Virus record (IMG/VR): IMGVR_UViG_2778261571_000007
From: a virus
Taxonomy: Duplodnaviria; Heunggongvirae; Uroviricota; Caudoviricetes
Length of the DNA: 12,976 nucleotides
Direction: 5' to 3' (one strand)
Shown here one piece after another: positions 419-10,701 of the stretch; the stretch's first letter is position 1; every line of letters starts with the position of its first letter. Under the pieces are notes generated by a model. It was not told where the DNA came from. It worked only from the letters and a program-made list of their open reading frames with translations, and searched no databases. The position numbers and the translations under genes were made by a program.

Positions 419-574
419 TTACTCCTCAGGTTCGTAAGCTGTGAAGACAGCGACCTCCGTCTGACCGGTTCGGATTCGCACCTCGCAGAGGTCTTTCCTC
501 GTTACCAGTGCCGTCACTATGACGGTTAAACAGATGACAATCAGTGCGACTAACATCGCCTTTTGCTGCTTCAT
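419..574 (-). CDS. hok: Hok/Gef family type I toxin (51 aa, small membrane-damaging peptide)
   Basis: The translation MKQQKAMLVALIVICLTVIVTALVTRKDLCEVRIRTGQTEVAVFTAYEPEE matches the Hok/Gef signature (N-terminal transmembrane helix, conserved RKDLCE...R.G..EVA.F.AYE) and is near-identical in pattern to E. coli HokC/HokD as I recall them. ATG at 572-574 has a GGAG Shine-Dalgarno upstream. Confidence 0.9.
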   Translation of the reverse strand: MKQQKAMLVALIVICLTVIVTALVTRKDLCEVRIRTGQTEVAVFTAYEPEE

Positions 575-631
575 AGCCTGCTTCTCCTTGCCTTCCGGCG
601 CGTAAGAGGCTAACCTACATGTGCAAAGCAT
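419..631 (-). CDS. Mok-like in-frame upstream extension of hok (70 aa), putative translational-coupling ORF
   Basis: The ORF starts at the ATG at 631 and reads in frame into hok. Its N-terminal extension MLCTCRLASYAPEGKEKQA resembles the MokC extension pattern. Whether it is translated is not determinable from sequence. Confidence 0.45.
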   Translation of the reverse strand: MLCTCRLASYAPEGKEKQAMKQQKAMLVALIVICLTVIVTALVTRKDLCEVRIRTGQTEVAVFTAYEPEE

Positions 632-1294
632 GAAATTGGCCTCAGATTAATGTTAAGCGTCTTGCCGGACGCGTAATGTTATCTGGGGCTTTTCTCTATC
701 TGCCTTTGGTGTTCATGCCTGAGGCAGATAGCCTCAAGCACCCGCAGCAATTCTACTTAACTCCCGTCACCTCGCCAATATAAAATCAATCAGAAAGGCG
801 ATCCATAAGAACAACAGCAAGACAATAAATTGCCATTACAGCCGCAATAGCTAGCGCACATTTGAGAACCAGCACGACAACCTCCTGTATTGGACGTACA
901 CCAGTTCTGATAAATATGAGGCTGTCTCATCATTGATTCAATATAACTATTGGGTATAGTTTCTGTGATTTTGTTCTGTAGAAATGGAACACAACAACCA
1001 GTCACCACCAGCACTTCTTTAAATACGCCAAGTCCGACGCAAGCTAACCTTCTAGTCCGCTTTGAGCGAGGAGCGGACCAAACCCGGCCAACTGACTCTT
1101 AAAGGGGCCGCAGGAATTTTTCGTCTGAACTTTCGAAGCTCCTCTCCCTGAAGACAGAAAACTTCTGTGTGCTGTGGGAATATTGAATCTTTGCCTTAGA
1201 TATAAATAATTTTATCCCGCCTGAAGTTTACATTATTTTATTTATCTGTTTTTCTAAATCAGACTGCACTCCTTACTTAAATCAGGAGCCAGTC

Positions 1295-2494
1295 ATGCCA
1301 TTTGTTATTTATGTGTTTACTATCAGTGCCTTTGCGCTCGGACTCGCGGAATTTGTCCCCATTGGGCTGACAGACGTTATGGCTCAGGGGTTGTGTGTGG
1401 GTGTGGAGCAGACCGGGGCAGCGGTTACAACCTATGCACTGGGGGCAACGTTCGCGGCACCCGTACTGTCTGCGCTGACAGCAAGCTGGAGCCGGAAAAA
1501 TGTAATGCTTACAACTGCCGTTGTGTTTACTGCCGGTAGTCTGGCGGCCGCGTTTGCAGCCACATTACCTCAGCTCCTGTTAGCGCGGTTCATTGCTGGT
1601 CTGGGACACGGCCTGTTTCTGGCTGCGGCATCCAGTACCGCAGCTCGTCTTGCTGGACCGGGTAAAGCAGGCAGAGCGGTGGCTGTGGTATTTGGTGGCT
1701 TTACTCTGGCGATGGCAATCGGCGTACCGCTGAGTACATGGTTGGGGGGGGTGGTCTCATGGCGTCCAGTTCTCGGCGCTATTGCCGCTTTTGGCGCGTT
1801 CGGATTCCTTGGACTGTTGTTCGGTATGAAAGATCCCGTACGCAGCGTGCCCGGTGAACATAGTGACTCAGCAATGCAGAATATCGGCATGCTGTTTAAC
1901 CGTAAGTTGCTGGCCGGCGCGCTGGTTACGGTGCTGGCGTATGCAGGCTCGTTTACGGATTACACCTTTATCGCACCTATTCTGACGCAGGTGACAGGGG
2001 TTACCGGAGCAACGGTGAGTCTGTTTATGCTGGTTTACGGTATTACAGCTGCGGTAGGTAATATTCTTGGTGGGAAACTTACCGACAGCATGGGGGTTAA
2101 TCGTGCCAATATACTCATCATTAGCGGCATTGTTGTTGTCGTGCTTGGTATGTGGCTGCTGTCATCCTCACCGGTGAGCATGGGCATTCTGGTTGCGCTG
2201 CTGGGTATGGTGACATTTGCCGCAGTGCCGGCACTGCAGGCCCGTCTGATTGGTGTCGCTGAGCAACATGCTCCTCATGCGCATGGTGTTGCTGCCGGCC
2301 TGAATATTGCGGGCTTCAACTCAGGTATAGCGCTGGGATCAGTACTGGGCAGCATTACTATAAGCCACGCCGGTATCGTGTATACCGGTATCAGCGGTGC
2401 GATTGTTTCTCTGCTCGGCCTGCTGTTGCTGCTTGCACAAATCCGTCGCAGCCACAGTCGTAAATTTCAACAGGTTAAAATCGTAGGCCAGTAA
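1295..2494 (+). CDS. MFS transporter, DHA1-type efflux pump (SotB/YdeA/NepI-like), 399 aa
   Basis: The protein is highly hydrophobic with a 12-helix-like pattern. It has an N-terminal EFVPIGL motif and a loop G(x)GKAGRAVAVVFGGFTLAMAIGVPL that align to the SotB-type sugar/purine efflux family. A GGAG Shine-Dalgarno lies 8 nt upstream. Confidence 0.88.
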   Translation: MPFVIYVFTISAFALGLAEFVPIGLTDVMAQGLCVGVEQTGAAVTTYALGATFAAPVLSALTASWSRKNVMLTTAVVFTAGSLAAAFAATLPQLLLARFIAGLGHGLFLAAASSTAARLAGPGKAGRAVAVVFGGFTLAMAIGVPLSTWLGGVVSWRPVLGAIAAFGAFGFLGLLFGMKDPVRSVPGEHSDSAMQNIGMLFNRKLLAGALVTVLAYAGSFTDYTFIAPILTQVTGVTGATVSLFMLVYGITAAVGNILGGKLTDSMGVNRANILIISGIVVVVLGMWLLSSSPVSMGILVALLGMVTFAAVPALQARLIGVAEQHAPHAHGVAAGLNIAGFNSGIALGSVLGSITISHAGIVYTGISGAIVSLLGLLLLLAQIRRSHSRKFQQVKIVGQ

Positions 2495-2505
2495 AGGGAG
2501 GTTAT

Positions 2506-3198
2506 ATGCTTACCCGTGAAAATATGCTTAATGGCACATTTGTCAGGGTGCATGAAGCGCTGCTCCCGGCGAATATGCTCTGGGACGCTGAAAAAATACG
2601 CGCATCAATGAACTCTACTCTGGAGGAGCGCCCGACGGGTGCTCCTGTCTGGATATTTGCCTACGGGTCATTGATGTGGAATCCCGTGCTGGCGATTGAA
2701 GAAATGCAACGGGCCCGTCTGAAAGGATTGCAGCGCAGTTTCTGCATTCGTTTGATATCCGGACGAGCGACTCCTGATGTCCCCGGCAGGATGTTATCGC
2801 TCGACGAAGGTGGAATTACCGAAGGTATTGCGTTCAGACTGCCGGAATCGACTCTTATTAATGAGCTGGAAATTGTCTGGACGCGCGAGATGATAACCGG
2901 TCTTTACCGTCCGGTCTGGGCAGACGTTTCGCTAGGAAACGGTGAGGAAATTCAGGCGCTGGCTTTCGTATCAGACAGACTGCATCCGCATTATGAACAG
3001 GACAATCTTACAGCGACCGTAGCGTTGAGCATCGCATCTGCCCGTGGAGACATTGGCACGAATGCAGATTATGTATGGAAACTGCAGGCCACTCTGGGTG
3101 CGTTGGGAATACGGGATGATTACGTGAGTGAACTGGCCCTTGCTCTGCATGAGGCTCCCTGTAACGATAAACTTCATCAGCGAGGCGCTTCACTATGA
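2506..3198 (+). CDS. ChaC-like gamma-glutamylcyclotransferase (glutathione-specific GGCT family), 230 aa
   Basis: The translation carries the hallmark YGSLMWNP motif and aligns along its length to E. coli ChaC as I recall it (e.g. PVWIFAYGSLMWNP, FC(I/L)RL, GRMLSLDEGG, WTREMITG). A strong AGGGAGG Shine-Dalgarno lies upstream; the gene starts 12 bp after the MFS stop. Confidence 0.85.
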   Translation: MLTRENMLNGTFVRVHEALLPANMLWDAEKIRASMNSTLEERPTGAPVWIFAYGSLMWNPVLAIEEMQRARLKGLQRSFCIRLISGRATPDVPGRMLSLDEGGITEGIAFRLPESTLINELEIVWTREMITGLYRPVWADVSLGNGEEIQALAFVSDRLHPHYEQDNLTATVALSIASARGDIGTNADYVWKLQATLGALGIRDDYVSELALALHEAPCNDKLHQRGASL

Positions 3199-4076
3199 GC
3201 CATCTGAGCCATCTGCGAACGTTTCTTGAGGCCTATCGCTCTGGCTCCTTTTCAAAGGCGGCAGAACTACTGGGCATCACTCAGCCCGCGGCGTCACAGC
3301 ATATCCAGTCTCTTGAGACTCTGGTTGGTAAGCGTCTGTTTATCAGGCAGGCCAGAGGCGTGACGGCAACCGAAGCTGCGGATGAGCTTGCCCGCTCAGT
3401 TTCACCCTTCATTGATGGTCTGGAAGAAAAGCTGTCCTCTTTCCGGTCAGGCTCTGTACGCGGGGGAACAATTAATCTGGCAGGACCGCCAGATTTTATT
3501 CATTCCCGGCTTGGGACAGTAATGGCTCCACTAATGAAGGAGGGGTATCGCCTACGCTTTCATACCGGCAATAAGCAACGTATTTATTCCCTTTTGCATG
3601 ACGGGAGCGCCGATCTCGCTGTTACCGCATCTATGCCTGATGACCGTCTGTACGGCTATGCACATCTACTGACTGAACGCATGCTCCTTGTTCATGCTCC
3701 CGCCATGTCAGAGATCATCGGATCAGAACCTGGTGCTGAAACGCTTGCCTCATTACCGCTGATTGCTTATGACGAAGAGTTGCCACTGATTAGAGCGCTC
3801 TGGGCCTCCATGTTTCAGAGAGCCCCTGAGATGCAGGCTACATTCACCATTCCGGATTTACGTATTATCCGCGACTTGGTCTGTGACGGCCACGGGTGGA
3901 CAGTGCTGCCGGATTATCACTGTGACAATGACCTGAAAAGTGGTCGCCTGATTTCAGTGACACCTGCAGACCTCGCTCCGACTAATCATCTTTATCTGGT
4001 CTGGAACAAAAGGACGGCTAATAACAGCCGAACCGCCTATGTTCGGGATTACATTCTTAAAACGTTTCCGCGTTGA
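3195..4076 (+). CDS. LysR-family transcriptional regulator, 293 aa
   Basis: The N-terminus has the LysR helix-turn-helix signature (LRTFLEAYRSGSFSKAAELLGITQPAASQHIQSLE), and the length and C-terminal domain are typical of the family. The start codon overlaps the ChaC-like stop (ATGA), implying co-transcription. Confidence 0.9.
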   Translation: MSHLSHLRTFLEAYRSGSFSKAAELLGITQPAASQHIQSLETLVGKRLFIRQARGVTATEAADELARSVSPFIDGLEEKLSSFRSGSVRGGTINLAGPPDFIHSRLGTVMAPLMKEGYRLRFHTGNKQRIYSLLHDGSADLAVTASMPDDRLYGYAHLLTERMLLVHAPAMSEIIGSEPGAETLASLPLIAYDEELPLIRALWASMFQRAPEMQATFTIPDLRIIRDLVCDGHGWTVLPDYHCDNDLKSGRLISVTPADLAPTNHLYLVWNKRTANNSRTAYVRDYILKTFPR

Positions 4077-4120
4077 TGTTTGAAACGGATGATTGGCGAT
4101 GCGTATCATAAGTTACGTAT

Positions 4121-4150
4121 GTCCGCTTCTGGCACAAAGCAGACGCCCAC
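4121..4150. repeat. Copy A of a 30-bp imperfect direct repeat (GTCCGCTTCTGGCACAAAGCAGACGCCCAC)
   Basis: 24 of 30 positions match copy B at 7794-7823 in the same orientation. It lies in the convergent intergenic gap between the LysR gene and the DUF2254-like gene. Confidence 0.6.
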
Positions 4151-4206
4151 TCTCACGCGAATGCTTTGCCCTTGACTTGCCAACAACCGTATCGCTTGCT
4201 CCGCAA

Positions 4207-5484
4207 CTATGGTTTTTTATTAGAATCTTCGCCACTAAATAAATTATAATAAATTGATTTTATTAGATATCTGTCAGAATCTATATGGTCAGCACGAGTA
4301 GCATGCTCTAATGTTTCAAATGCTAGGGTTTGTGCGGCTTCAGCAAAAATTCCAGGCCAACCCTTACTCAGCATCGACAGTCCTTTAAGTACCCTTATCT
4401 GAATTTCCCTCATACTGGCACCATCGCGCGCAACAGGTGAGAAAAAGTCTTCAAGTAGATCGTTATTCTGAAGTGGTGCAACATGTACAGAAGGATATTT
4501 CACTTCTATTTCATCAGATTTATTCTGCGCGTAAGCGGAAAGTATACGTACACCTCTGCCAATGACATCAATGGCGGTTCCAGGATCGTTCACTGCGGGG
4601 GAAAGGGCTCGGCAGGCTATTTCGGCCATGACGCTAAGACAAAATCGGGGGTCCTGAGCAAATGAACGTACATCCGAGACAATAATCGTCTCAAGTAAAT
4701 CGGTGCTGATTGATGACTCCTGGCCCTGACTCAGGTACAAAACTGGCGTGGACGGATGTATGAAACTGCCCGGCTGCGCCACGAGGTATACATGACGGGG
4801 ATCATTGGTCAGCAGCTTGCTGAGTTTCACCATATCAACATATTCAACATAGCCAATCTTTTTCGGATAAACTGCAACCGTTCCTTTCGGCTGTTCATTG
4901 TTCTCAAGCCATGGATATCCGCCGAGACAGGGATTTCTTGCTCTCGCAATAAATGTTTCGATGGCCGCCTGTTCTACTTTTGCCGTTGTCTCACCAACCC
5001 TCCCCAGAGAGGTCAAATGCTGTATCCAGCGAAGCAATGTGATGAGGATTAAGGCAATGACAACCAGTGTTACAATGAATAAAATGACTCTCCCCCTTTC
5101 TCCATAAGCTCCCATATTGAGGGCAATAATCCCTACCAGACTGAAGAGAAAAGAACCGATGAAGGTGGCCAGTACATTTTGTGTGGTGACGTCTTCAACA
5201 ACTAAACGAGTAGCTCTGGGAGTCACATTAGTAGTGGCTGAACCGTAGGCTGTGACCATGATGCTCAGCGAAAATGTGGTCACTGCCAGCATACTCGATG
5301 CCAGTATGTTCAGAATGTTATCGACTGCTTCCGCACCAACCTTCACGGAAACCGACTCAGGTATCATTGATTTAAAAAGAATTGATAAAAGGGCCGTTAT
5401 TATTGCGACAATTGCGAATAACGTTGCCCTGAACCATAGTTTTTTAAATGTCTGCTTCAGCATCCATTTCCAGCGTGAAATCAT
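4207..5484 (-). CDS. Integral membrane protein with a large C-terminal soluble domain, DUF2254-like, about 425 aa
   Basis: A long ORF with N-terminal transmembrane segments and a conserved-looking SPAVNDPGTAID motif. The start is probably the ATG at 5482-5484 (GAGGGA Shine-Dalgarno 9 nt upstream); the ORF track's ATG at 5499 has no Shine-Dalgarno. The family assignment is from memory and moderately certain. Confidence 0.8.
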   Translation of the reverse strand: MISRWKWMLKQTFKKLWFRATLFAIVAIITALLSILFKSMIPESVSVKVGAEAVDNILNILASSMLAVTTFSLSIMVTAYGSATTNVTPRATRLVVEDVTTQNVLATFIGSFLFSLVGIIALNMGAYGERGRVILFIVTLVVIALILITLLRWIQHLTSLGRVGETTAKVEQAAIETFIARARNPCLGGYPWLENNEQPKGTVAVYPKKIGYVEYVDMVKLSKLLTNDPRHVYLVAQPGSFIHPSTPVLYLSQGQESSISTDLLETIIVSDVRSFAQDPRFCLSVMAEIACRALSPAVNDPGTAIDVIGRGVRILSAYAQNKSDEIEVKYPSVHVAPLQNNDLLEDFFSPVARDGASMREIQIRVLKGLSMLSKGWPGIFAEAAQTLAFETLEHATRADHIDSDRYLIKSIYYNLFSGEDSNKKP

Positions 5485-5509
5485 TCTGCATTCCCTCATA
5501 TTGCAGCCG

Positions 5510-5541
5510 GGATAAATAAATGCCGCCTCTGTGGCGGCATG
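5510..5541 (-). terminator. Rho-independent terminator downstream of the BetT-like gene
   Basis: On the minus strand: ATGCCGCC-ACAGA-GGCGGCAT (8-bp GC-rich stem) followed directly by TTTATTTAT, starting 7 nt after the BetT-like stop. Confidence 0.7.
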
Positions 5542-5547
5542 TTGCTG

Positions 5548-7551
5548 TTAACGAACCAGATGCAGGAAGTGCAGGTGTTTTTCGTACTGGTCCAGTATGT
5601 CATTAATCAGCTGTTCCTGATTCCAGCCCATTACATCATAATTTTGGCCGCCCTCTTTGAGATAGACTTCAGCGCGATAATATCGATGTTGTTCACTCTG
5701 CTGCTCATCATTATCCAGCGCAGCGAGCGCGAAGGTCGGTGAGTTATACCCGCGAAGCCTCACTTCATATATATAATTCAGCTCGTTGCCCAAATCGACT
5801 TCAAGGCGAATACGATCCTCGGCGGCGTCACTGATGTGGCTTATCGTTCCCTGCTTGTTAAGTTCCTCCTGAACCAGCGTCATGGCGGGTTGGATAATGT
5901 CGTCCATAAAACGTTTCACAAGAGAGCGCTTCGGCAAATACGCGATATTGCGTAACCTTCTCTGCCAGGGAATTGGGTTACGTGCAGCCGTAGGAGCAAT
6001 AGTCGCCATGCTAAGGCTTTCACGTTTGGTCAAATCCCGACGCAGGGCTTTTAACAGTCCGTATATGGATATTAATAAGATAACTGAGAAGGGCAATGCA
6101 CTCGCTATCGTTACGGTTTGCAACGCACTCAGCCCCCCTGCGATCAGCAGGGCAATAGCAACAACGCCCATGAGCGATGCCCAGAAAATTCGCTGCCAGA
6201 CGGGCGTGTTTGCCACCCCACCTGATGCCAGAGTATCCACAACCATTGCCCCCGAATCAGCAGACGTTACAAAGAAGACGATGACCATCGCCATTGCAAT
6301 GAATGACAGCACGGAAGAGAACGGGAAATGCTCCAGGAAATTAAACAGGGCAAGCGCAACATCCTGCTGAACGGTATTGGCGAGGTCAGTGGCGCCCTGG
6401 TTCATGATGAGATAGATGGCGCTGTTTCCAAACACCGTCATCCACATGAGCGTAAAGCCGGCGGGAACAAACAACACGCCAGTCACGAACTCACGAATTG
6501 TCCTGCCGCGGGAAACGCGTGCAATGAACATACCTACAAACGGCGACCATGAAAGCCACCATCCCCAGTATAATAATGTCCAGCCCCCCAGCCAGTTGCT
6601 CGACTTGGGTTCATACGCGTAAAGGTTGAACGTTTTACTCACCAGTTCCGACAGATAACCACCCGTATTTTCCACAAATGACTTCAGCAGAAGCACAGTG
6701 GGACCCAGGCACAAGACCAGCGCCAGGAGCAACACCGCCAGGCCCAGATTAAGCTCAGACAGGATGCGTATTCCCTTGTCCAGGCCGGACACCACCGAAA
6801 TCGTCGCTAACCCCGTGATGACCACGATCAAAATGACCTGTACCGTTTCATTGATGGGCACGCCGAAAAGATGGTTCAAACCGGCATTCACCTGCAATAC
6901 ACCGTAACCCAGCGATGTTGCAACGCCAAAGACAGTGCCTATCACGGCGAAGATATCAACCGCGTGGCCTATAGGCCCGTAAATGCGATCGCCGATAATG
7001 GGATAGAGCGCAGAACGCAGCGTTAAAGGCAGACCGTGACGGTAACTGAAAAAGGCCAGAATCAGCGCCACGATGGCATAAATTGCCCATGCGTGCAGAC
7101 CCCAGTGGAAGAACGTCAGGCGCATGGCTTCCTTCGCTGCCGCAACGGTCTCTGGAGTGCCGACAGGTGGCGAAAGATAATGCATCACAGGTTCGGCAAC
7201 GCCAAAGAACATCAGGCCGATCCCCATCCCTGCCGAAAAAAGCATCGCGAACCAGGAGTGGTAGCTGAAATCAGGCTGCGCATGGTCTGGGCCCAGCTTT
7301 ATATCACCGTAACGTGAGAGTCCAAGGAACGTGACGCTCAGTAAAATCAGGGCCACAGCAAGTATGTAGAACCAGCTGGCATTCGTGAAGATTTGTTGCT
7401 GAAGTAGTTTAAAATTTTTGTCGGCGACATCCGGGAATACGGCGGCAAAGGCGACAAGAAGGAAAATTAGCAAAGCAGATGTAAAGAATACCGCTTTGTT
7501 AATCTGGCTTGTAGACTTCTTTGGGGTTGTATCATTTTCACTCATAATCAT
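5548..7551 (-). CDS. BCCT-family transporter, BetT-like (choline/betaine/carnitine family), 667 aa
   Basis: The translation aligns throughout with E. coli BetT as I recall it (e.g. KLGP(E/D)..P(E/D)FS..SW.AMLF.AG.GI.LMFF.VAEP, WSPFVG(M/L)F(I/L)ARISRGRTIR(E/Q)FV, VTSADSGA) and includes a long C-terminal cytoplasmic tail. No betI/betB/betA genes are adjacent. Confidence 0.9.
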   Translation of the reverse strand: MIMSENDTTPKKSTSQINKAVFFTSALLIFLLVAFAAVFPDVADKNFKLLQQQIFTNASWFYILAVALILLSVTFLGLSRYGDIKLGPDHAQPDFSYHSWFAMLFSAGMGIGLMFFGVAEPVMHYLSPPVGTPETVAAAKEAMRLTFFHWGLHAWAIYAIVALILAFFSYRHGLPLTLRSALYPIIGDRIYGPIGHAVDIFAVIGTVFGVATSLGYGVLQVNAGLNHLFGVPINETVQVILIVVITGLATISVVSGLDKGIRILSELNLGLAVLLLALVLCLGPTVLLLKSFVENTGGYLSELVSKTFNLYAYEPKSSNWLGGWTLLYWGWWLSWSPFVGMFIARVSRGRTIREFVTGVLFVPAGFTLMWMTVFGNSAIYLIMNQGATDLANTVQQDVALALFNFLEHFPFSSVLSFIAMAMVIVFFVTSADSGAMVVDTLASGGVANTPVWQRIFWASLMGVVAIALLIAGGLSALQTVTIASALPFSVILLISIYGLLKALRRDLTKRESLSMATIAPTAARNPIPWQRRLRNIAYLPKRSLVKRFMDDIIQPAMTLVQEELNKQGTISHISDAAEDRIRLEVDLGNELNYIYEVRLRGYNSPTFALAALDNDEQQSEQHRYYRAEVYLKEGGQNYDVMGWNQEQLINDILDQYEKHLHFLHLVR

Positions 7552-7885: not shown

Positions 7886-8308
7886 TCACTTCAATAAATA
7901 CCGAACATCCCCCTGATAAAACGACAATATGCGCTGCATAACTTCGCTCTTCCGGCACTCGCGACAGATTATGTTTAGGCGACTGTCGTAGCGACGTATT
8001 TCTCCGTCAGGTAATGACCAGATAAGGTCCGGATCAACCACAACCGGTTTCTTCAGCTTTGCCCTCGATAATTTTTTGCGGGCATTTTGCCAGTCTTTAC
8101 GAGCCTGTTCAGACGGGAATAACCCGTAGCCAGAATTGTATACATCGCCACTGGCAACCAGCTCTCTGGCCAGAACGCTCATCAGATATCTTGTTGCCCC
8201 AGTTTTAGCTTCCAGTTGTCGTAACGTCTCGCGCCCACTCTGGCGTACGAGTTCAAGAACCTGCCCTTTAATTTTTTCCCGCTCTTCTTGTGTAAAAACT
8301 TTTGCCAC
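7886..8308 (-). CDS. Phage-associated hypothetical protein (140 aa), last gene of the rightward early operon; function unknown
   Basis: GTG start at 8306-8308 with a strong AGGAGGG Shine-Dalgarno 5 nt upstream. It lies 40 bp downstream of the replisome-organizer gene. The basic protein has a C-terminal CRECRK motif and no recognisable helicase or helicase-loader motifs. Confidence 0.6.
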   Translation of the reverse strand: MAKVFTQEEREKIKGQVLELVRQSGRETLRQLEAKTGATRYLMSVLARELVASGDVYNSGYGLFPSEQARKDWQNARKKLSRAKLKKPVVVDPDLIWSLPDGEIRRYDSRLNIICRECRKSEVMQRILSFYQGDVRYLLK

Positions 8309-8348: not shown

Positions 8349-9419
8349 TTACCCCCTGAAGCCCGGCGGAATTTCGTTATCCGGTTCAGAAATATGATTC
8401 ACACAACGCTGGTTGTTCGTGCCGCTTACCGGGAGCAACCAGGGGTTCTCAAAATTCCGGTCCGGTCCAAAAAACGTCGTCGCTCGCTGAACAAATTCCG
8501 TTCCCGTTTTCCCGGTAGCCGCCAAGTATCTTGCGTAACGCCTCACGCCATCCAGCATGGCCTCTGGTGGCACCCCCTCGCGTAATCTGGCCTTCCAGGC
8601 ACTGAAAGCGGATTTCTTCGGGTTTGCCCCAGCACGCAACGGGTACTCCCGCCAGACCTGTTCGAACACATCCGGATAATCCACTCGTCCCACAGACTGC
8701 CCGGTGTTTTCCGGGACTACCCGATCGGCTTCCCGCTGAATGGCGGAATCGGCTTCAGGCTGCTGCAGTTGGTGTGATTGCTCCGCCCTTGCGGTCATCA
8801 CCTGCTGCACAGCGCCCGAATCGGCTTTCAGCGCATACGCTGAATCGGCTTCCGGTGTCGTGCCTGCTGGCTGACCAAGATTGACGGTCTGAACATCCCC
8901 TGCCTGGTTCGTGGCGTTTTTTACGCCATGGACCATAGTGTTTTGATCTTCTTGATCTGTATCTTTATCTGTATCTTTATCTGTCGTGACTCGTCGTGAC
9001 ATGTGCGTGACATTTCGTGACGCGCCGTGACAATCGCCATTTTGTTCCCGCTTTCTTTCCCTCTCTCGCTGCGCCCTCTTGCGCTCTGCAGGAGATTTTG
9101 CGGTTTGCGAAATATTGCCGTTGTCCTCTTTAAGCACCTGGCGTTTTTCCCATCCAGTGATTAAATCACCATCAAGTACCCGCCCCTGCATCGTCTGCAA
9201 AATTGAATCAATTACCTCTTCTGTCACGTCGAGCGCACTTGCCAAATCTTCTGTCGTGACATCAATGTGACCTCGCGTGACATTTCGTGACGCGCTCACC
9301 AGGAGGTGGATATACACTGCCATCACTGTTGCAATTGGCTGTCCTGACACCCTGGCAATTGTTCGCCACTTAGGGTCATTTGGCATGTCATGCCATAATC
9401 TGAGCCAGGCGTTAGCCAT
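8349..9419 (-). CDS. Phage replication initiator / replisome organizer (lambda O-like role), about 356 aa
   Basis: The N-terminus MANAWLRLWHDMPNDPKW resembles the phage replisome-organizer N-terminal domain pattern. The C-terminal segment F.QVW..YP...G...K..A..AW...L......E.......Y resembles the lambda O C-terminal region. Iteron-like repeats lie inside the gene, as in lambda ori. Start is probably the ATG at 9417-9419 (GAGGTGA Shine-Dalgarno); an in-frame GTG at 9425 is also possible. Confidence 0.75.
   Translation of the reverse strand: MANAWLRLWHDMPNDPKWRTIARVSGQPIATVMAVYIHLLVSASRNVTRGHIDVTTEDLASALDVTEEVIDSILQTMQGRVLDGDLITGWEKRQVLKEDNGNISQTAKSPAERKRAQRERERKREQNGDCHGASRNVTHMSRRVTTDKDTDKDTDQEDQNTMVHGVKNATNQAGDVQTVNLGQPAGTTPEADSAYALKADSGAVQQVMTARAEQSHQLQQPEADSAIQREADRVVPENTGQSVGRVDYPDVFEQVWREYPLRAGANPKKSAFSAWKARLREGVPPEAMLDGVRRYARYLAATGKTGTEFVQRATTFFGPDRNFENPWLLPVSGTNNQRCVNHISEPDNEIPPGFRG
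8944..9031. repeat. Putative replication origin core: tandem ATCTKT hexamers followed by five helically phased CGTGAC iterons
   Basis: ATCT recurs at 8946-8976 as (ATCTGT ATCTTT)x2 ATCTGT. CGTGAC then occurs at 8985, 8995, 9006, 9016 and 9026, a 10-11 bp periodicity, all in the same orientation inside the replication gene. Confidence 0.6.
9218..9291. repeat. Second iteron cluster inside the replication gene
   Basis: (C/T)GTGAC occurs at 9255, 9266, 9276 and 9286 with 10-11 bp phasing. One inverted GTCACG lies at 9223, and CTTCTGTC is duplicated at 9218 and 9248. The 21-mer GCGTGACATTTCGTGACGCGC at 9276-9296 is an exact copy of 9005-9025. Confidence 0.55.
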
Positions 9420-9490
9420 ACTCACCTCTTTTGATACCGAATCTTTTTACTCACAAATTGCCGGAAGTGATCCGGTATGAATATTGCGAG

Positions 9491-9916
9491 TCAATGCACA
9501 GCCACAATATTTCCTGCAGGGCCACCACGATTCATCTGGTTGAAACCAGCGATCGCCACTGCGACAAAATCATCAGCGTCTCTCACCAGTCGTTCCCGCG
9601 TCTCCACTAGTTCCCGAAAATAGGCTGAGCTATGGCTGCGCATTCGGGCCACCAGCAGAGGTGGCATTGCTTTTTCGATAGCTGGTAACAACGCCTGAAT
9701 TTTTTCAACTGCATCAGGGGTGTCTTTCTCTACCCAGCGGAAAATTTTCTGGGTATTGCGAGCCAGGGCTTCCGGATGGCTGTCGTCATACAGTTCTGGG
9801 AACGTCATACCCAGTTCAAAATAAGCCCTGGTTATTTCAGCTGCCGGAACTTTTTCACCGTCCGGATGCGCCCAGGCATTCATCGCCATGCGGATGTGTT
9901 CATGCTTGATTTTCAT
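9491..9916 (-). CDS. YdaT-like protein (lambdoid CII-position gene of Rac-type prophages), 141 aa
   Basis: The position directly after the Cro-like gene and before the replication gene, and the length (141 aa), match ydaT of Rac-type prophages. AGGAG Shine-Dalgarno 8 nt upstream. The start overlaps the 3' end of the upstream gene by 17 bp. Confidence 0.65.
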   Translation of the reverse strand: MKIKHEHIRMAMNAWAHPDGEKVPAAEITRAYFELGMTFPELYDDSHPEALARNTQKIFRWVEKDTPDAVEKIQALLPAIEKAMPPLLVARMRSHSSAYFRELVETRERLVRDADDFVAVAIAGFNQMNRGGPAGNIVAVH

Positions 9917-10181
9917 GAATCAAGCTCCTAGAAAGTGGTTGTGTTAACATTTTGGTATCTTCCAGCTCGGGCCAAATATTCATCCAATCAAAAGGCCTTA
10001 GTTGCTGACGTGTAACTTCACCATTACTGGCTCGCTCAATAAGGACACATAACGATGCCCCTAACACTTGACCTTTACTCAATGCCTTTCTTAGATAACC
10101 GATGCTGGTACCACACTCGCATGCAAACATACGCTGTTCATCTGACGAAAGAGAATTGAGAAATATTCTTAATTCTTCCAT
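9900..10181 (-). CDS. Cro-like helix-turn-helix regulator (YdaS family), 93 aa
   Basis: Divergent from the repressor gene. It contains a helix-turn-helix-like segment ...CGTSIGYLRKALSKGQ... followed by GEVTRQQLRP, typical of the YdaS/Cro-like family. AAGGAG Shine-Dalgarno 7 nt upstream of the ATG at 10179-10181. Confidence 0.7.
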   Translation of the reverse strand: MEELRIFLNSLSSDEQRMFACECGTSIGYLRKALSKGQVLGASLCVLIERASNGEVTRQQLRPFDWMNIWPELEDTKMLTQPLSRSLIHENQA

Positions 10182-10204: not shown

Positions 10205-10286
10205 AAAGAATACCCATAGGTAAACAAAAGTCAATACCCACAGGTTGTTTACCTTGCAGTAATCGCATCTATTATTTACCTATGGA
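10205..10286. promoter_or_regulatory. Divergent immunity-region promoter/operator (OR-like): repeated TACCCA(T/C)AGG / AGGTAAACA motifs with candidate promoter elements on both strands
   Basis: TACCCATAGGTAAACA at 10211-10226; TACCCACAGGTTGTTTACC at 10235-10253; TTTACCTATGG at 10275-10285, overlapping the repressor start codon. Minus-strand -35 TTGACT (plus 10229-10234) and -10 TATTCT (plus 10207-10212) with a 16-bp spacer precede the Cro-like gene. Plus-strand -10 TATTAT at 10270-10275 ends 6 nt before the repressor ATG. Confidence 0.6.
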
Positions 10287-10701
10287 CAAATATGAATTTA
10301 GACGACAGCAACTCATCAAAATTCGTGATGAGAAATGCGATGGTAAAGCGGTTAACGTGGCCAGAAAGATCGGGCGCGAGCCTTCTTATGTATCAAGAAT
10401 GTTGTACCCAGAGGGGAAAAAGGGAAAAAAACGGATCGCTGATGATATGGTGGAGATTATCGAAGAGTCCTTTGGGTTACCCCGGGGATGGATGGATGGT
10501 ATCGTTTCATCATCAACGAACACAGCCTCCAGTTATGAAACAAGGGTTCTAACGCCACGACAACGTATTTTTTTAGATCTCTTAGACGAACTGCCAGAAA
10601 GTGAAGCGGATAACTTATTAAAAACTCTTGAAGAGAAAAAACAGTATTACAATATGATCTACGAAGAAATCCGTAAAAAGAAAGCACAAAACGCATCATA
10701 G
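10282..10701 (+). CDS. Prophage repressor, RacR/CI-position gene, 139 aa
   Basis: Divergent from the Cro-like gene and flanked on both sides by the same operator-like motif. It has a putative helix-turn-helix segment (AVNVARKIGREPSYVSRML) and an acidic C-terminal domain. No Shine-Dalgarno is present, which is consistent with a leaderless transcript. Identity with RacR is inferred from synteny, not sequence recall. Confidence 0.7.
   Translation: MDKYEFRRQQLIKIRDEKCDGKAVNVARKIGREPSYVSRMLYPEGKKGKKRIADDMVEIIEESFGLPRGWMDGIVSSSTNTASSYETRVLTPRQRIFLDLLDELPESEADNLLKTLEEKKQYYNMIYEEIRKKKAQNAS

Follow-up and report, generated by a model that had tools for sequence, protein, structure and literature searches.

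A candidate phased-iteron replication origin inside the replisome-organizer gene of a Rac-like Escherichia coli prophage

Where does replication of a Rac-like prophage begin? The design in which an origin is built into the gene of its own initiator is well known. In ori-lambda, four iterons and a 39-bp high-AT region lie within O, and each iteron, an 18-base-pair (bp) inverted repeat, is said to be the binding site of two O proteins (PMC6022878). In phage SPP1, oriL lies in gene 38, where "AB boxes" bound by the organizer G38P, a protein without an AAA+ domain, stand beside an AT-rich DNA unwinding element; SPP1 also encodes the helicase G40P and the loader G39P and has a second binding region, oriR (PMC5737612). 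For the Rac prophage itself, an active origin, oriJ, has been reported (PMC3945230). Here we analyse a 12,976-nucleotide stretch of DNA (the window; IMG/VR record IMGVR_UViG_2778261571_000007), a piece of an Escherichia coli chromosome with a Rac-like prophage, and within it a gene whose 356-residue product is predicted, at the level of annotation, to be a replication initiator or replisome organizer: the protein matches phrog_3729, "replication initiation protein" (E = 2e-257), and the NCBI name for its relatives is "phage replisome organizer". We consider it likely that positions 8940-9291, inside this gene, are the theta-type replication origin of the prophage, which would lie within the sequence that codes for its initiator. 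Two arrays of the hexamer CGTGAC, which we call A and B, a single inverted copy, and an A-rich, purine-rich candidate DNA unwinding element are its parts (Table 1).

The proposed mechanism follows the logic of ori-lambda (PMC6022878) and of SPP1 oriL (PMC5737612), and we therefore read the locus as an iteron and unwinding-element design. As in ori-lambda, the proposed origin lies in the initiator's coding sequence between the N-terminal DNA-binding and the C-terminal parts, about 40 bp of AT-rich, unwinding-prone DNA lie on the transcriptionally downstream side of an iteron array (PMC6022878), and the gene stands in an early operon after cro-like and cII-like genes. The original prediction had likened the locus to lambda ori, and the likeness holds for the placement of the origin in the initiator gene and for the AT-rich flank; it does not extend to the repeats, which here are 6-bp direct-repeat cores, one per helical turn, and not 18-bp palindromes, nor to the protein, which is no lambda O homologue and, searched at full length, matches no Pfam family at E <= 0.01 and none of the lambda O type. 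Furthermore, lambda has one array of four iterons whereas this gene has two arrays about 260 bp apart and an inverted copy, and no P-type or DnaC-type loader gene adjoins it. Unlike in known cases, array A lies within the part of the gene that codes for the DNA-binding domain. SPP1 oriL is likewise situated within a replisome-organizer gene, with direct repeats beside an unwinding element, and an organizer without an AAA+ domain is a further feature in common. SPP1 differs in its repeat sequence, in encoding a helicase and a loader and in having the second region oriR (PMC5737612), genes of which there are none here, and any relationship between the two proteins is remote at best (the match to PF09681 falls below threshold).

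The K-12 Rac prophage (locus L002, NC_000913.3 1421119-1422729) is of the same type and has its replication genes at the same map position, between a racR/ydaS/ydaT-like switch and ydaW/DUF977. The module itself is unrelated, consisting of YdaU (DUF1376) and the DnaC-like YdaV, and was rejected as a direct homologue; nor does K-12 Rac contain a GTCACG cluster, only four scattered copies in 10 kb. The replication module of the window has therefore been swapped in. Iteron plasmids offer another parallel. In their origins, direct repeats for a winged-helix initiator lie beside an AT-rich region, and control can be exerted by a second cluster of iterons. The iterons of plasmids measure about 17-22 bp, are usually found outside the rep gene and usually occur with DnaA boxes; by contrast, we found no DnaA box in or near the arrays of the window.

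Both arrays run in one direction, reading GTCACG in the sense of the organizer gene. The five copies of array B that had been predicted at 10-11 bp spacing are all exact and start at 8985, 8995, 9006, 9016 and 9026 (spacings 10/11/10/10 bp). Array A had been described as a cluster of four; three copies are exact (9255, 9276 and 9286), and the fourth, TGTGAC at 9266-9271, matches at five of six positions. All copies had been thought to share one orientation, which overlooked the inverted copy at the position equivalent to residues 64-66. Roughly 220 bp separate the arrays, and an extra 21-bp, two-iteron unit (HMSRRVT) is present in the linker of the window protein. Every site lies, as predicted, inside the open reading frame (ORF), which spans 8349-9425(-) with the RefSeq start at the ATG at 9419. 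The frequency and phasing of the hexamer are far above background. The whole window contains 13 copies against 4.68 +/- 1.96 expected (at least 13 in 0 of 200 shuffles), nine of the 13 fall inside 307 bp, and CGTGAC is the sole hexamer in the window that chains at least four copies at 9-12 bp spacing. A chain of at least three copies at this spacing is formed by just one other hexamer, that of the neighbouring ATCTGT repeat; the ATCTKT tandem repeat that had been noted beside array B is indeed there, reported by TRF as period 6 with 5.5 copies and period 12 with 2.9 copies (8950-8984).

Could these repeats be a by-product of duplicated peptides or of replication slippage, with no function as DNA? 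The peptide ASRNVT does occur twice, as had been noted (residues 43-48 and 133-138), and copy number shifts in frame-preserving 21-bp steps, as a by-product would allow. Against this explanation, the hexamers fall in all three codon phases (1, 2, 0, 2 and 0 within array B), and the protein alone accounts for few of them: in synonymous-codon shuffles that kept the protein and the codon usage of the gene, copies averaged 1.63 and the observed eight were reached in 0 of 20,000. The homologues give the same answer at the level of single codons. Our set comprised 52 loci from a genome collection, one per species, together with phage loci, and the codon test used 23 orthologues of the GTCACG class with about 55-75% amino acid identity (Enterobacterales, Pseudomonas, Bordetella, Acidovorax, Stenotrophomonas, Chromobacterium and others), at conserved residues whose codons are at least four-fold degenerate. 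The entropy of codon choice was 0.13 bits inside hexamers (n = 8) and 1.89 bits outside them (n = 28), with no overlap (p = 1e-5; this and the p-value below overstate independence, the sequences being phylogenetically related). For example, in array A the codons V47 GTC, T48 ACG and G50 GGT are each found in 23/23 orthologues and S44 TCA in 22/23, while the spacer residue R49, between hexamers, is encoded by four different codons. Similarly, the codons of the inverted iteron are GAC in 17/23, GTG in 19/19 and ACA in 13/17. In the disordered linker the only invariant residues are H131, S134, R135, V137 and T138, all imposed by the hexamers.

Nor are the hexamers lost where the peptide has changed. 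In Pseudomonas phages phi1 and Marin (69.5% amino acid identity), whose linker peptide differs, four and four GTCACG copies and the inverted copy are retained, and in the phi1 linker four copies stand at exactly 10-bp spacing despite divergent flanking peptide. Because three codon phases are used, synonymous shuffles never reproduce the count and codon choice varies in the spacers but hardly at all within the hexamers, the repeats are elements under selection at the DNA level, independent of the encoded protein. The nucleotide repeats have thus been kept beyond the needs of the protein, and neither refuting condition set with the original prediction (a conserved peptide without conserved repeats, or a frequency and phasing at background level) holds. 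The idea of a mere peptide effect fails, and with codon phases, frozen synonymous codons and the shuffle test all opposed to it, we regard a by-product without DNA function as scarcely credible. For annotation, frozen synonymous codons and an invariant "CH..SR.VT" in a disordered linker signify a constraint on DNA and not on protein.

The same layout recurs across the family. Most homologues (about 50 genes) place array A in a loop of the N-terminal domain and array B in the disordered linker, about 260 bp further on, with an A-rich, purine-rich stretch after it; in nucleotides of the gene, array A occupies 129-170, an inverted copy is often found at 192, and array B, with 2-7 copies, lies within 345-500. 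Many orthologues have four exact copies in array A. Successive copies are spaced by 10 bp in 137 cases, by 11 bp in 32 and by 20/21 bp in 15. The motif itself differs by subfamily, being GTCACG, GTAACG, GAACGC/CGAACG, GCAACG (in Ralstonia phage Firinga) or AACGCC, with an ACG core in all. When the best phased 5-mer was sought de novo in the two regions separately, arrays A and B gave the same or overlapping motifs in 34/35 genes, whereas in 10,000 trials with permuted A/B pairings 19.7 genes matched on average and never more than 30. This paired switching of motif in both arrays provides a natural series for the study of initiator-origin co-evolution. Array copy number evolves through frame-preserving indels within a structural domain, since each insertion in the array A loop consists of additional iteron units: 7, 14 and 22 residues in L090 (E. 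albertii), L129 (Sphingomonas) and L115 (Pseudomonas), respectively. Loop and linker are tolerant places for iterons.

The distribution of motifs also bears on which protein reads them. One could imagine that the hexamers are bound by a host factor or a neighbouring phage regulator, for example a YdaT/CII-like protein, and are not iterons of the organizer, and a YdaT-domain gene does lie upstream of the organizer in Pseudomonas phage Marin as well. However, the motif class follows the organizer subfamily and not the host: GTCACG is found in Enterobacterales, Pseudomonadales, Burkholderiales, Xanthomonadales and Neisseriales, yet GTAACG takes its place in some Enterobacterales (Pantoea L110, Enterobacter L112). 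The arrays are always within the organizer gene. Among 56 loci, tblastn detected homologues of the neighbouring genes in only a few (ydaT-like in 4, ydaS-like in 4 and DUF977 in 1; its sensitivity was limited, as the annotated YdaT-domain gene of Marin was missed), and the organizer gene is therefore the sole constant companion of the arrays. Binding by such another protein is, in our judgement, very unlikely, and we infer that the organizer is the protein that binds.

The organizer of Shigella phage 75/02 Stx (L008 1361-1500) has only its C-terminal half in common with the window protein. It contains short repeats of its own at 11-bp spacing (TTTTATCAT/TTTTATGAT; AAGGGGCTTC twice) and, in the corresponding position, a purine-rich CAAGAACAGGAA… stretch, which suggests the same origin logic with another N-terminal domain and another site. 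Two family members, L131 (from a Serratia metagenome-assembled genome) and L138 (Pantoea), have the same N-terminal domain joined to a different C-terminal part (…YVYYVA…VGIS.NPWAR…) that we take to resemble a GIY-YIG/T5orf172-type motif. These two have no GTCACG-type arrays, just a few ACTACG repeats, and their proteins may not be initiators.

Array B is adjoined on its downstream side by the A-rich stretch, which is the GC minimum of the gene (71% AT against 46% for the gene). The least stable 41-nucleotide duplex of the gene falls at 8941-8981, with a dG of -44.7 against a mean of -58.8 +/- 3.8. In nearly all homologues array B is followed by a AGATAAAGATAAAGA-like stretch, typically (C/A)(T/C)AGATAAAGATAAAGA. 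Across the family, AT content rises from 45% gene-wide to 63% in the 45 nucleotides that follow array B (p = 6e-11), and purine content from 57% to 72%; the AT enrichment is seen even in genes of 32-40% AT. The CAGATAA at the start of the stretch is read in another frame in several genes, giving Q-I-R instead of T-D-K; the A-rich stretch is therefore also a DNA element.

That the low-stability stretch adjoins array B alone raises another possibility: the arrays, or at least array A and the inverted copy, may be regulatory sites of the organizer, used for autorepression, as a transcriptional roadblock or, in the manner of plasmid control iterons, for copy control of the "handcuffing" type, with the origin proper confined to array B and the A-rich stretch. 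Such a division would agree with the presence of array B without array A in three loci (L125, L139 and L006), and with a distance between the arrays that varies from 240 to 350 bp and so keeps them in no fixed helical register. On the other hand, synonymous conservation in array A is as strong as in any part of the gene, its motif covaries with that of array B, and its place is within the coding region, far past any promoter of the gene. We consider a purely regulatory role unlikely and retain both arrays in the proposed origin.

What kind of protein would read these sites? The organizer consists of an N-terminal helical, winged-helix-like domain (residues 1 to about 100), a basic helix (residues 110-127), disordered linkers and a C-terminal domain. 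An AlphaFold2 (AF2) model of residues 1-157, built from an alignment of 64 sequences, has a predicted local distance difference test score of 86-95 over most of residues 11-90 (11-40 and 51-90). It places helices at residues 4-14, 16-25 and 29-45, a loop at 46-55, a helix-turn-helix at 56-63 and 67-77 followed by a beta wing, then the basic helix, with disorder past residue 131. By this model, array A codes for the end of helix 3 and the loop, while array B and the A-rich stretch code for disordered linker.

The C-terminus carries a tail of 25 residues that resembles the extreme C-terminus of the host primosomal protein DnaT. A PDB sequence search with the tail returned the DnaT chains 6aep, 2ru8 and 9zbt, at their C-termini only; BLASTP aligned it to K-12 DnaT with 15/25 identical residues, IPPGFRG ending both proteins; and the NCBIfam DnaT model matched residues 333-356 (E = 7e-4). 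Several relatives share this ending although their C-terminal domains are different, and the Pfam DnaT DNA-binding domain is present in 16/64 relatives. We propose that the tail may be a short docking motif for the host helicase-loading machinery, one that the phage could have taken from the replication-restart machinery of the host or have in common with it. In a recent study of the preprimosome, DnaT is proposed to mark where the helicase is loaded and possibly to recruit DnaB/DnaC (PMC13377028), which makes the shared tail suggestive. The organizer offers a handle on how a phage initiator might tap the host DnaT/DnaC/DnaB pathway.

A further repeat, GAATCGGCTTC (in gene sense GAAGCCGAT[T/C]), occurs in four copies in the second linker of the protein, at 8722, 8746, 8818 and 8842 (within window positions 8722-8852; spacings 24/72/24 bp), all in frame and coding (P)EADS(A). 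Shigella phage 75/02 Stx has two copies 23 bp apart in different frames (L008 1678 and 1701). It may be a peptide repeat, the trace of a compensated frameshift or a DNA site.

We propose the following sequence of events. The organizer would be made from transcription of the rightward-operon type through the ydaS-like, ydaT-like and organizer genes, and would bind the GTCACG iterons via its N-terminal winged-helix-like domain. With one site per helical turn, bound proteins would be aligned on one face of the DNA, over five sites in array B and over three to four and one inverted site in array A, and a higher-order nucleoprotein complex would form, possibly looping out the DNA between the arrays. 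Strain from this complex would open the adjacent A-rich stretch, and the C-terminal domain with its DnaT-like tail would then bring in host DnaB/DnaC for the origin to fire. We assign this last step to the host because neither a helicase nor a loader is encoded by the phages themselves: in phages Tritos and Evi none is annotated within 4 kb on either side of the organizer, and in the window no loader gene adjoins it, the gene immediately downstream being DUF977. The initiator thus apparently works alone, without a phage loader, and the module, apparently a single phage protein and host factors, is a candidate for a compact minimal replicon.

Several observations weigh against this proposal or temper the tests behind it. 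Apart from the relatedness of the sequences already mentioned, orthologues were retrieved partly via a peptide pattern that overlaps array A, which biases amino acid sequence and not codon choice. Among near-identical E. coli copies (25 distinct DNA versions) substitutions in the hexamers are not depleted, with 4/30 variable sites against about 3.5 expected, a comparison that is uninformative; similarly, all 80/80 loci returned by an IMG/VR scan with the N-terminal alignment were 100% identical in protein and of no use for tests of divergence. Clear arrays are missing in some family members (L116, L118, L130-L132, L134 and L138). A Foldseek comparison of the AF2 N-terminal model with the PDB found nothing significant (best E = 0.18), although its top matches were winged-helix regulators of the MarR, GntR and CRP types. 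Pfam PF09681 (Phage_rep_org_N) matched the isolated N-terminus at 16.5 bits, below its cutoff of 23.3 (E = 0.0085), over profile positions 1-119 of 121, and among 64 relatives there were 0 matches at E <= 0.01; kinship to that family is at best remote. Finally, literature searches on oriJ, replisome-organizer iterons, GTCACG with iteron, and DnaT with organizer found no description of this origin family, which in the papers searched is so far uncharacterised.

The position of array A suggests one further possibility. Its iterons also code for the loop at residues 43-56, and if this loop were the specificity determinant, the site and its reader would be contained in the same bases. Few segments of the DNA-binding domain differ consistently by motif class, and the loop is among them: it reads SRNVTRGH..VT in the GTCACG class and SNATERGR in the GAACGC class. 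The canonical helix-turn-helix residues do not tell the classes apart. We hold this double duty of array A to be quite doubtful. If true, a single mutational event could change both site and reader, a route to new origin specificities and incompatibility groups.

Table 1. Positions of the proposed origin, its gene and the surrounding genes in the window.
Feature	Position	Strand	Basis or content
Array A: three exact iterons and one 5/6 copy	9255..9291	.	Codes residues 43-55 (ASRNVTRGHIDVT), loop between helix 3 and helix-turn-helix
Single inverted iteron	9223..9228	.	GTCACG on + strand; codes D64-V65-T66
Array B: five iterons	8985..9031	.	CGTGAC on + strand, GTCACG in gene sense; codes linker residues 130-145 (CHGASRNVTHMSRRVT)
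A-rich, purine-rich stretch, candidate DNA unwinding element	8940..8984	.	ATCTKT x5 on + strand; gene sense ACAGATAAAGATACAGATAAAGATACAGATCAAG... (AGATAAAGATA...)
Predicted replisome-organizer / replication-initiator gene, 356 residues	8349..9419	-	ORF and translation; RefSeq coding sequence of 1071 nucleotides
DnaT-like C-terminal tail, 25 residues	8352..8426	-	SGTNNQRCVNHISEPDNEIPPGFRG; …VNHISEPDNEIPPGFRG; PDB search, BLASTP, NCBIfam
Repressor-like gene, divergent	10282-10701	+	
Cro/YdaS-like gene	9900-10181	-	
CII/YdaT-like gene	9491-9916	-	
DUF977/Ren-like gene	7886-8308	-	Directly downstream of organizer

The organizer gene lies in a module whose order, leftward from about 10.2 kb, is repressor-like, Cro/YdaS-like, CII/YdaT-like, organizer, DUF977/Ren-like, cargo island and hok/sok. 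An Rfam search found no RNA family within the organizer gene. The organizer genes of E. coli phages in a phage collection (Tritos, Evi and isolates of the vB_Eco type) are 97.8-99.4% identical in nucleotides to that of the window (Tritos 98.9%, Evi 97.8%), one 90%-identity protein cluster of the organizer has 1,121 member sequences, and the module is found across Gamma- and Betaproteobacteria. For this replication module, common among E. coli, there is now a concrete, testable candidate origin.

Between the replication module and hok, the prophage contains a cargo island (window 1295-7551) with genes for an MFS transporter, a gamma-glutamylcyclotransferase, a LysR regulator, a DUF2254 protein and a BCCT transporter; the corresponding position in K-12 Rac is occupied by trkG. 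Beyond the island, a toxin-antitoxin locus of the hok/sok type lies at window 419-743 on the minus strand, with an Rfam match to the sok antitoxin RNA at 569-743 (116 bits) and the RefSeq gene hokD nearby.

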